Positions 33,080 through 35,350 of a DNA stretch of 64,000 nt are shown here, piece after piece. Every line of letters begins with the position of its first letter. The first letter of the stretch is position 1. Source of the DNA: Obrimoposthia wandeli (Eukaryota); the NCBI GenBank assembly GCA_977020255.1, contig CDROCS010003264.1, positions 62,001-126,000 of the forward strand, given 5' to 3'. A program made the position numbers and the translations under genes. The notes beneath the pieces were generated by a model, which was not told the DNA's origin, did no database searches, and worked only from the letters and a program-made list of their open reading frames with translations.

Positions 33080-35350
33080 TCATTTTTCTTCTGATAATGT
33101 GTGACCTTGAATGAGAAATTGTGATCTTTTACCGATTTTTATAGGATTTTCTATAATTACATCAATTTGGTTTATTTGTCTGTTTGATGTACTATCTTTC
33201 AATCTTGGATCTTGTAAATCAATACTTATCCCTTTGAGTTGTGATAGTACATCCATTCCTAAAATTGTAGGTTCAGGACATTCTTTCATGATTCTAAATG
33301 GTATAGTGATCGTATTACGTCCAATTATAAATGTACATGGTAATATTCCCGTCACTTTTACAGGGTCTCCGTTGACCGATACCAAGAATTCATCTGGTTC
33401 TGCCATTGTTCGTTTCTGTTCCTCTGTCAAACAATCTTCACTTACTATCGAATCTACAGCACCTGTATCAATTAAGGCTTTTACTCTTAAATTATTTACT
33501 CTAATGATAGCTGCTGGTCGCTGTGCTCCATTTATATTTCCCATATGGTATATTGTATTTATCGAATTATTAAACTCTGTCAGTCCACTTCCTTTGTTTG
33601 GATAGTGAAATCTAATATTTCTCACTTGTCGATCTATTATCCTTCTACAAATCGGACATGATACCATTTCCTTCGCACATCTCCGACATGTTCTTACATG
33701 TCCGCATGGTAAAAAGGCAACTTCTATTTTGTTGACCATGCAAACTGCGCATTCCGGATCTTCTAGTACGTATTCTAGATCATTTATGTACTCTTTCTCT
33801 TTTGTTTCAATTGTACTGTCATCTTTATCTTTTAGTAATTCAAAAATTGATCCGTATCCGTTTCGCATAGTTTTTATTTTTAATTCTACCAAATCTCTGA
33901 TTCTTTCTGCTTCTTTTGGATATAGTCTTCTCACGAATGACACTACCGGTGTGTCTTGTTGAGCCAAAATCTCTTTCCGTGTGATTTGGTATTCGATTAT
34001 ACATTCGGTTTTCTGTTCTTTTAGCTTTATTTTGTTTTTAAAAATACAAAATTCGCAAAATTTATGATGTAACGTTTTCTTAGGTAACTCAAGAGTATAT
34101 CTGTCGATAATTCGTTCTTTTTTACACTTATGGCATTTGATTACGTCTTTACCATCCTTTTTTATAGCAAAAAGTCCCTTTTTTGCCAATTTTTTAAGTC
34201 TTGGATCTTCGAAAGTTACTTCTCGATATTGTTCGTCACATTCGTTCACTTCTCGCATTACTTCGAATATGTCTTCAATTCGACTATTTGTTATCACTCT
34301 GCCAACTATAAGAGCTGATTCTCCTTCTGGAATCTCGTCACTGTTATCGAAATCGGGTGCTTTTCCCATTTGGATTTCTGGTACGTTTGAAGTTTTCAGT
34401 TTCAAGAGAAATGGACAATTTGGTGCATCTCTTTTATGACGTTTCATTGGGTCTTCATTGTTTTCCCACTTTCTAAACTTTACTCTACACCATACGCATC
34501 GTACTACTTCCTCAGAACCATAACAACTTGTCGCGTTTAACATTTGTAAACCTGTTCTTGCCATTTTACGTGACATTTCTTTTGAATAGTACGGTTCTAG
34601 TGATCTTCGTCTATTTTTCTCGATTCTCAAGGGATCTTTTTCTGACAGATTCACATATGTTATTTTCCTCCTCGTCATAGCTTGTGGTCCGGAGTTTACG
34701 TCTTTGTAGTGAAGTATCGACTTTACTAGCGCTTCCTGTTTCCTGTCTTGGTACGGATTTCCCATACGGAACATAGTGTATTTTTCCTTTTCGACTATAG
34801 GTCCTCTCAACATTTTTATCTCTCTCACTGAACTGTCGTTCTTAAAACTCTTGTTGTTTGGTAATATAATTATTCCTTCAAACATCCGTATTACGTCCAT
34901 CCCAATCATGACTGGGCTACCACAATCTGTGAATATTCTAGCATTTAACTGCAATGCTCTTCCATCGATATTTAACGAACATTTCAGTGTTCCTTCTGAC
35001 ACTACATATGTACCATTTACGTTAACAAATGTCTGTTTTCTAGGGCATACTTCTCTTAATTCTTTTGATGACAAGATTTCTTTACTCAGTACTGATACTG
35101 CAGATCCAGTATCAACTTCGGCAAGATATTCTCTTCCGTTCAGTGTTACTGCTACTTGTGGTGGAGCATTTGGATTCTCATTGGATATCCTAGACTTCAG
35201 AATTCTTCTATAATTATCTTTTTCGTTTTTTTCCTCTGCTTGTGGAATCTCACTGTAGTTCATTTTAGGCCATCTTATCATTAAAATGCCTCTCTTGAAC
35301 TTTTCCTTCTCTTCCTTTAGTTCCTTCATCGGATATAGGTTTAGCGCCAC
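33080..35350 (-). CDS. Aspartic protease 1 - BIR - degenerate BIR - UBA-like - C3HC4 RING (IAP) - aspartic protease 2
   Basis: EVDTGSAVS..IGMDV (DTG 35113-35105); CVWC..WE..DPM.RH.RDAPNCPF; LAKKGLF..KCHKC; PVV..IRDLVELKIKT..GYGSIFEL (cf. XIAP UBA); CAVC..FLPCGH..CRRC..CPICR; LIDTGAVDS..LGMDV (DTG 33469-33461). Confidence 0.9.
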   Translation of the reverse strand: MALNLYPMKELKEEKEKFKRGILMIRWPKMNYSEIPQAEEKNEKDNYRRILKSRISNENPNAPPQVAVTLNGREYLAEVDTGSAVSVLSKEILSSKELREVCPRKQTFVNVNGTYVVSEGTLKCSLNIDGRALQLNARIFTDCGSPVMIGMDVIRMFEGIIILPNNKSFKNDSSVREIKMLRGPIVEKEKYTMFRMGNPYQDRKQEALVKSILHYKDVNSGPQAMTRRKITYVNLSEKDPLRIEKNRRRSLEPYYSKEMSRKMARTGLQMLNATSCYGSEEVVRCVWCRVKFRKWENNEDPMKRHKRDAPNCPFLLKLKTSNVPEIQMGKAPDFDNSDEIPEGESALIVGRVITNSRIEDIFEVMREVNECDEQYREVTFEDPRLKKLAKKGLFAIKKDGKDVIKCHKCKKERIIDRYTLELPKKTLHHKFCEFCIFKNKIKLKEQKTECIIEYQITRKEILAQQDTPVVSFVRRLYPKEAERIRDLVELKIKTMRNGYGSIFELLKDKDDSTIETKEKEYINDLEYVLEDPECAVCMVNKIEVAFLPCGHVRTCRRCAKEMVSCPICRRIIDRQVRNIRFHYPNKGSGLTEFNNSINTIYHMGNINGAQRPAAIIRVNNLRVKALIDTGAVDSIVSEDCLTEEQKRTMAEPDEFLVSVNGDPVKVTGILPCTFIIGRNTITIPFRIMKECPEPTILGMDVLSQLKGISIDLQDPRLKDSTSNRQINQIDVIIENPIKIGKRSQFLIQGHTLSEEK

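Follow-up and report, generated by a model that had tools for sequence, protein, structure and literature searches.

The locus described here raises the question of why a giant retroelement carries an inhibitor of apoptosis (IAP) between two aspartic proteases inside one polyprotein; retroelements normally have a single protease. The window, that is, the whole 64-kb stretch analysed (contig CDROCS010003264.1 of Obrimoposthia wandeli, positions 62,001 to 126,000), holds a Burro-like giant long terminal repeat (LTR) element on the minus strand at about 22.7-43.4 kb. One piece of this broken copy is the cassette frame 33083-35455 (minus strand, 791 codons, in-frame stops at both ends in the window copy). 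Judging from the sequence, we consider it rather probable that a captured IAP standing between two conserved proteases is cut free and acts as a RING ubiquitin ligase, within a full model of a Burro-like element.

An earlier note on this DNA had read the cassette as a complete IAP, with the domains BIR, BIR, UBA and RING, between two intact proteases. The order protease, BIR, degenerate BIR, degenerate UBA, RING, protease was confirmed, with corrections. The features are as follows (aa, amino acid).

34868..35161, minus strand: protease 1 (PR1), accessory aspartic protease, DTG at aa 115, IGMD at aa 184-187 (Pfam; 30% identity to PR2 over 99 aa)
34631..34792, minus strand: IAP N-terminal segment, common with stand-alone relatives, fast-changing (alignment to relatives; variant counts below)
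34400..34630, minus strand: BIR1, canonical zinc ligands, type-I-like groove, fast-changing (PF00653; alignment to cIAP1 BIR3; Foldseek BIR matches)
34040..34240, minus strand: degenerate second BIR, C-x2-C-x18-H-x3-C (hhalign; same spacing class in relatives)
33812..34006, minus strand: UBA-like helical domain without M-G-F loop (hhalign; helical bundle)
33599..33778, minus strand: IAP-type RING finger (PF13920; best PDB sequence matches the RINGs of cIAP1, cIAP2 and XIAP)
33224..33517, minus strand: protease 2 (PR2), canonical, proximal to the reverse transcriptase (RT), DTG at aa 663, LGMD at aa 732-735 (Pfam; 34-42% identity to most RT-proximal proteases of relatives)

Pfam placed two aspartic-protease stretches in the cassette frame, and both domains have the retropepsin (A2-type) marks, D-T/S-G and a hydrophobic-G-x-D helix motif, with equal spacing from the Asp to the helix motif. 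To assess their conservation, 110 loci were aligned to the window copy, the window locus included; L022 (internal duplication) and L041 (duplicate) were left out, and there was no further de-duplication by place. Variants present in at least four loci were taken as shared, and their classes were counted per column, not on a tree. Shared silent and replacement variants numbered 16 and 0 in the tail of the envelope protein (Env), 28 and 4 (plus one stop) in PR1, 8 and 0 in PR2 and 13 and 2 in the RING, while the counts were 12 and 25 for the IAP N-terminus, 20 and 33 for BIR1, 16 and 11 for the second BIR and 15 and 4 for the UBA-like domain. For PR1 in 30 loci picked on Env alone, we found 18 silent variants and one replacement. 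The comparison of shared with rare variants gave p-values of 6.5e-6 for PR1, 0.042 for PR2, 0.05 for the RING and 0.15 for BIR1; the BIR1 counts differed from those of the RING (p 0.001) and of PR1 (p 1.8e-5).

Judged by these shared and rare variant counts, both proteases are under purifying selection and neither has decayed, and the constraint on BIR1 is much weaker than that on the RING. The catalytic Asp was kept in 104 of 106 loci for PR1 and in all 80 loci covering the position for PR2; together with the excess of silent variants in both domains this rules out one dead protease, and the two intact proteases of the earlier note stood. Loss of zinc ligands was not found either: those of BIR1 (C-x2-C-x16-H-x6-C) were kept in 106-107 of 107 loci and the eight of the RING (C3HC4) in 68 of 68. 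A stop-free single frame across the cassette was present in 22 of the 75 cassette-spanning loci. An assembly chimera was ruled out by the many copies and the 110 aligned loci.

A profile search of a natural long frame of the element found exactly two proteases (aa 2048-2150 and 2597-2700), both after the Env membrane segment (aa 1883-1901). Because both are C-terminal to this anchor, they cannot serve opposite sides of Env, and the idea that each side of the Env break has its own protease had to be given up.

Origin of the second protease

The earlier note held that the protease was duplicated during IAP capture. Relatives for comparison came from 3 of the 150 listed rows of one protein search and 4 of the 120 rows of another. 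Three of them (P0009, P0269 and P0278) have the order Env, protease, C2H2-type zinc fingers, protease, RT; P0272 has Env, a protease-like domain (D-T-A), ankyrin repeats and a protease; P0010 has four tandem proteases after Env, P0121 has two before RT, and P0268 has one, with no Env in the record. At least two proteases after Env were thus seen in five relatives; zinc fingers or ankyrin repeats fill the interval in some, and in others it is empty. In P0009, P0269 and P0278 a third protease domain, its DTG intact, follows the integrase. A further family in the same genome, family B, has Gag, Env, one protease and RT, without an IAP. One of its loci (L181-L182, G000:C3196) has the simpler order Gag-Env-PR-RT-IN followed by downstream ORFs (open reading frames), which, from their motifs by eye, resemble DEDDh exonucleases.

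The combination of protease and IAP was absent among the 150 listed proteins and four close relatives. Word-indexed protein searches with the whole cassette gave no match at longer or similar lengths, and the Atlas search gave no usable match.

Since the relatives have two to four proteases with other cargo or none, the doubling is not special to IAP capture, and that part of the claim fell. The duplication itself fared better. PR1 is most likely a lineage-specific copy of PR2: the stretch of 30 residues that follows its helix motif aligns in register with PR2 at a score of 29, while the next best of the 19 proteases compared reached 3. The IAP family was the first to branch on the RT tree, followed by family B (94/92) and finally by the six RT-bearing database proteins (97/96), which places the single-protease family B between the IAP family and the multi-protease relatives; two independent protease doublings are favored.

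The five relatives could also mean that the common ancestor of the entire Gag-Env-Pol clade already had the protease-cargo-protease layout, that the IAP replaced an earlier cargo and that family B lost its accessory protease. We regard this account as possible but doubtful. The first branching of the IAP family on the RT tree agrees with it, and a grouping of PR1 with every other accessory protease was not rejected (p-AU, the approximately unbiased test, 0.49). On the protease tree, however, PR1, on a long branch, fell with the RT-proximal group, which was separated from the remaining accessory proteases (96/98). The Trp-containing C-terminal motif of most accessory proteases is absent from PR1, whose C-terminal segment matches PR2 specifically.

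The IAP module and its kinship with Polintons

Pfam matched the BIR at aa 292-350 (E 4.5e-12) and the RING at aa 566-609 (E 4.9e-12); it had no match to the second BIR or the UBA. Profile-profile comparison with cellular IAP domains gave probabilities of 90.6% for the second BIR and 93.5% for the UBA, with mismatched controls below 1%. A model of the 379-aa IAP had a pLDDT (predicted local distance difference test score) of 55 with the RING unfolded, and its Foldseek matches were to BIR only. In a 161-aa model of the second BIR and the UBA-like domain (pLDDT 68), a BIR-like helix-strand order was followed by a helical bundle at pLDDT 80-90; the assignment of the two domains rests on the profile comparison. 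The UBA-like domain does not have the M-G-F loop of cIAP1, which is the ubiquitin-binding loop of UBA domains; the loop is replaced. Of the complete IAP first proposed, a BIR and a RING with canonical ligands stood, while the second BIR and the UBA proved degenerate, the latter being UBA-like only.

In the groove of BIR1, Arg339 and Asp343 occupy the places of E/Q319 and W323, and Trp330 and an acidic residue at 334 are kept. In type I BIRs, bulky or non-aromatic residues at those groove positions block peptide binding (PMC6360406). The marks of XIAP, a type II BIR with an intact peptide groove (IBM, IAP-binding motif) and a UBA with the M-G-F loop, were not seen in the module, and XIAP-like caspase inhibition is doubtful given the type-I-like groove. 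A role as E3 ligase is likelier than direct caspase binding because the RING is strongly constrained, while BIR1 is fast-changing and has lost two peptide-groove residues; most likely the module acts as an E3 ligase with a retargeted adaptor. Its role may be to block cell death, to dampen immune signalling or to assist budding.

Cellular and baculoviral RING-IAPs (cIAP1/2, XIAP) have the same order of BIR, UBA-like domain and RING. Unlike them, the retroelement IAP has one BIR and the UBA degenerate and a type-I-like BIR1, is embedded in a polyprotein and belongs to a separate lineage. A quick tree of 70 BIR+RING rows united the six members of the lineage that have a first BIR in one group (99% by SH-aLRT, the Shimodaira-Hasegawa-like approximate likelihood ratio test), apart from 64 other IAPs, of which 41 were sampled from the protein search and the rest were viral or metagenomic. 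L178 and L180 failed the motif filter and were left out. Among the tree entries from IMG/VR (3 loci) and from metagenome loci (80 kept of 181) there were only ordinary IAPs outside the lineage.

A search of the genome for BIR returned mostly stand-alone IAP frames of 341 aa and 301 aa. In the two regions examined in full, these adjoin an A32 ATPase, an integrase, a jelly-roll-like capsid gene and a protein-primed polymerase; on the evidence of these neighbors, the 341-aa and 301-aa IAP genes lie in Polintons (Mavericks). They belong to the same lineage as the retroelement IAP and are among its closest relatives, with 34% and 38% identity and the same C-terminal end. The Polinton IAPs and four stand-alone database proteins also have its N-terminal segment, its UBA-like part and its RING end. 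Unlike the retroelement IAP, those of Polintons are free ORFs with their own stop, their BIR1 groove keeps Gln and Phe, and their second BIR is shortened (341-aa family) or deleted (301-aa family). Transfer may have run either way. The extant Polinton forms were not the source of the retroelement copy, which still has more of the second BIR than either of their two families. A host IAP gene was not found with query P0002, whose 88 matches lay in long frames resembling element copies, with none to the N-terminal part, a result that does not establish absence.

The kinship suggests that genes have passed between mobile elements of the RNA-based and the DNA-based kind. RING-IAPs are reported as lost in the flatworms sampled in PMC13159474, the main text of which does not name planarians. 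If the host is a planarian, as the match to Burro elements would suggest, mobile elements may be the main carriers of RING-IAP genes there.

In one Polinton region (G000:C609:145755-160039, L101-L103), the 341-aa IAP and a phosphatase-like ORF stand in a 4.15-kb inverted repeat of 99.9% identity flanking the core genes of the Polinton, and other contigs have comparable inverted pairs spaced by about 10.5 kb. The phosphatase-like ORF (L102:387-1121) is 29% identical to the phosphatase of the retroelement and is without the HCxxGxxR motif. The phosphatase is possibly a second gene common to retroelement and Polinton.

Release from the polyprotein and likely role

The RING would be C-terminal only after processing. 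The earlier note had named two Tyr-Pro bonds as cut sites, and both pairs are present (aa 41-42 and 618-619). These motifs and the candidate cut sites are listed here.

35318..35338, minus strand: LYPx3L in the Env tail, candidate ALIX-binding late domain containing the first Tyr-Pro (YP in 8/8 Env-bearing sequences)
34808..34819, minus strand: I-K-M-L, candidate cut site that would free the IAP N-terminus (in register with I-N-Q-I after PR2; kept in 104-107/107 loci)
33596..33610, minus strand: F-H-Y-P-N, native IAP end and second Tyr-Pro (Polinton IAP ends; kept in 79-80/80 loci)
33551..33562, minus strand: I-N-T-I, candidate cut site between RING and PR2 (kept in 79-80/80 loci; aa 621, 625 and 628 vary)
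33164..33175, minus strand: I-N-Q-I, candidate cut site after PR2 (kept in 77-79/79 loci)

Around the first Tyr-Pro (aa 20-60) there were 16 silent and no replacement shared variants. All 8 Env-bearing sequences (7 families) had a YP no more than 130 residues before the first protease, compared to about 0.2 expected in each, with the 130-residue window set afterwards and the 8 sequences related to each other. YPXnL is an ALIX-binding late domain (PMC8402826), and YPDL or YPx3L occurred in 6 of the 8 sequences, as in the retroviral late domains of EIAV (equine infectious anemia virus) p9 and HIV-1 (human immunodeficiency virus 1) p6. Unlike those, as they are described in that paper, the candidate motif here belongs to the cytoplasmic tail of Env within a Gag-Env-Pol chain and not to Gag. 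LYPx3L follows the Env membrane segment and would lie on the cytosolic side. Recruitment of ALIX as a late domain is the likely role of the first Tyr-Pro and fits it better than a cut site does, and the Env-tail motif suggests budding by ESCRT (endosomal sorting complexes required for transport). It offers a peptide-level handle on the published idea of Burro-type elements as proviruses.

The three Ty1 sites described in PMC6952103 have hydrophobic P2/P2' and hydrophilic P1/P1' residues and none is Tyr-Pro; Ty1 and Ty3 sites are unlike retroviral ones according to the same source. We observed that I-K-M-L and I-N-T-I fit the Ty1 P2/P2' pattern. The 791-aa frame has five words of this Ty1-like kind, one each after PR1 (aa 213), before PR2 (632) and after PR2 (761) and two inside PR2. 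The candidate sites are nearly invariant; nearby linker residues vary. Words of the form I/V-x-M-L/I stand 26-36 residues ahead of five accessory proteases in relatives. The second Tyr-Pro is still a candidate cut site, because it is nearly invariant and coincides with the native terminus of the IAP. The RING ends where its stand-alone relatives do, with 4 residues following the same FH in Polinton IAPs, in agreement with the near-native C-terminus that the earlier note expected from cleavage.

In the mechanism that we favor, a tandem duplication would have copied PR2 along with the cut site downstream of it and so given rise to PR1. The copied site (I-K/M-L) would now set the N-terminus of the IAP, and a second site, either I-N/T-I or Tyr-Pro, would set its C-terminus. 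A second protease in the chain would ease dimerisation of the membrane-tethered precursor, by a PR1-PR2 pair or by doubling the local monomer concentration. Once freed, the IAP would serve as a RING ubiquitin ligase whose targets lie in the death or immune signalling of the host, with BIR1 predicted to be a substrate or partner adaptor and not a caspase-peptide trap; the first Tyr-Pro would recruit ALIX as a late domain for budding.

An unlikely variant is that PR1 is mainly a structural or regulatory partner, forming an obligate intramolecular PR1-PR2 dimer that times activation, and that the attached IAP ubiquitinates particle proteins and so helps budding. Both monomers are indeed complete with the same Asp-to-helix-motif spacing, the late-domain-like motif stands just upstream and the polyprotein also has a ubiquitin-like domain, but the three or four proteases of P0009, P0010, P0269 and P0278 do not fit a fixed pair, and constrained candidate sites lie on both sides of the IAP. 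Still less probable is that both Tyr-Pro bonds are cut and that the product, with its near-native C-terminus, inhibits caspases directly like XIAP: F-H-Y-P-N is kept and coincides with the Polinton IAP ends, and BIR1 retains Trp330 and the acidic residue at 334, but the first YP fits YPXnL, the Ty1 sites are not Tyr-Pro and those of Ty1 and Ty3 are unlike retroviral ones (PMC6952103), the BIR1 groove is type-I-like, and the post-RING residues may be kept for RING dimer contacts.

Several points count against the favored mechanism of a cut-free ligase. The cut-site pattern was defined after seeing the sequences and is based on Ty1, a Copia-type enzyme. A cut at I-N/T-I would leave the RING 17 residues past the conserved Phe, compared to 2-16 in the stand-alone relatives, and C-terminal extensions can impair RING ligases. 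Two of the 8 YP motifs have a final Ile instead of Leu. Although PR1 fell among the RT-proximal proteases, its support as sister of PR2 was only 40/2, and its union with the other accessory proteases was, as said, not rejected. The replacement excess of BIR1 is still below neutrality (ratio 0.37), so relaxed constraint fits BIR1 as well as host conflict does. Finally, the variant counts took no account of a tree, and resemblance to parts of the cassette was the criterion by which three of the four locus sets were chosen.

More tentatively, the observations could be joined as follows. A self-excising cargo slot would have arisen by tandem duplication of protease and cut site at least twice in Gag-Env-Pol Gypsy elements; the IAP lineage would have been traded with Polintons of the same host, and conflict with the host would keep BIR1 diversifying beside a frozen RING; and the conserved ALIX late domain in the Env tail would mark the clade as budding, enveloped endogenous viruses that carry their own anti-death ligase.

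The giant element and its known relatives

The further parts of the element and of a second, inverted copy of the same family are listed here.

22708..43366, minus strand: Burro-like giant Gypsy element with stops and frameshifts and incomplete LTRs (Pfam domains; 92% and 91% identity to a natural copy)
35459..36112, minus strand: C-terminal part of Env (Monjiviricetes-type fusion glycoprotein) with membrane segment (PF24664, E 2e-33; hydropathy in the natural long frame)
31050..32518, minus strand: RT, RNase H and integrase zinc finger of the same polyprotein (Pfam)
62626..64000, plus strand: PR1 and the start of the IAP in the second copy (inverted repeats of 92-94%; Pfam), the cassette running past the window end

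The second copy begins at about 54.4 kb on the plus strand and is 93.9% identical over the cassette (locus L031). The natural copy used for comparison has direct terminal repeats of ~2.1 kb. The domain order is Gag with a zinc knuckle, ubiquitin-like domain, Env (PF24664), PR1, IAP, PR2, RT, RNase H, integrase and dual-specificity phosphatase. In at least one natural copy, everything from Gag through both proteases and RT lies in a single frame of 5,497 codons, and further frames of 4,000-5,478 codons appeared in the genome searches. These searches gave 28,250 and 21,643 first-look candidates, which are not copy numbers, as only 150 candidates were scored per search, all with at least 97% identity. 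The Burro-like Gag-Env-Pol Gypsy family is very abundant in the genome.

The Gypsy order of protease, RT, RNase H and integrase is present with LTRs, and the PF24664 Env stands in frame after the zinc knuckle and ahead of the proteases; domain order and Env placement fit the Burro-type element suspected at the outset. The ubiquitin-like domain before Env had ubiquitin-fold matches (E 0.0025). A BCL2-like domain before Env had no Pfam or PDB match, though an NGGW motif resembles BH2. MATH/TRAF and ankyrin motifs of Burro-1 had no match in the 12 window frames scanned with Pfam; we therefore did not file the element as Burro-1 itself. Named Burro sequences were not among the results of any search.

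Burro/GYPSM1 elements of dugesiid planarians are giant Gypsy elements whose polyprotein of ~5,000 aa includes Gag, ubiquitin-like and BCL2-like domains, a mononegavirus-type Env between gag and pol, protease, a dUTPase-like region, RT, RNase H and integrase, as described in PMC6431247. The same text already lists a BIR motif, so BIR in Burro elements is published, and it has MATH varying between species. The element studied here likewise has a single giant polyprotein, the in-frame mononegavirus-type Env between Gag and protease, and a ubiquitin-like domain. It differs in its longer frame, in the phosphatase domains after integrase, in the lack of MATH and ankyrin matches and in having two proteases round an IAP; the Burro/GYPSM1 text (PMC6431247) mentions a single protease and has no unit of the BIR-BIR-UBA-RING kind. 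In the GAG-ENV-POL errantiviruses described from nematodes, bryozoans and flatworms, which are Ty3/Gypsy elements, Env likewise stands between gag and pol (PMC13524379); their main text, to which the comparison is confined (supplements excluded), mentions protease once and apoptosis never and describes no accessory proteases or IAP. More broadly, the literature texts (including main-text passages of PMC13524379, PMC8532177, PMC11410931, PMC13238120 and PMC13159474) had nothing on doubled proteases, a protease-bounded IAP or IAP sharing with Polintons; figures, the original Burro paper and the Repbase entry lie outside this coverage and may already show two proteases. Two selected proteases bracketing a host-manipulation module, and the same layout round other cargo, suggest a general route by which polyproteins could gain accessory genes without new promoters.

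Beyond the cassette, the window has a dual-specificity phosphatase with intact catalytic motif and a degenerate second phosphatase (27414-28481, minus strand). The 3' part of the element also has small ORFs encoding RING-like C3HC4 fingers (23170-24675, minus strand) and a hydrophobic 592-aa ORF (25485-27263). Elsewhere in the genome we observed host-type genes that we take, from their motifs, to be survivin-like (L071) and DDI1-like (L193), with several DDI1-like copies on two contigs. Some contigs of the assembly (L192, G000:C3797:78001-88000, and L148-L152) have bacterial operons, by eye pyruvate dehydrogenase, nadC-like and type IV pilus ATPase-like genes, and are probably contaminant or symbiont DNA. 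The two copies in the window are oriented head to head, facing away from each other, and tandem arrays (49, 20, 109, 29, 57 and 16 bp) lie in or beside their 5' ends at 41333-44577 and 54094-56555.

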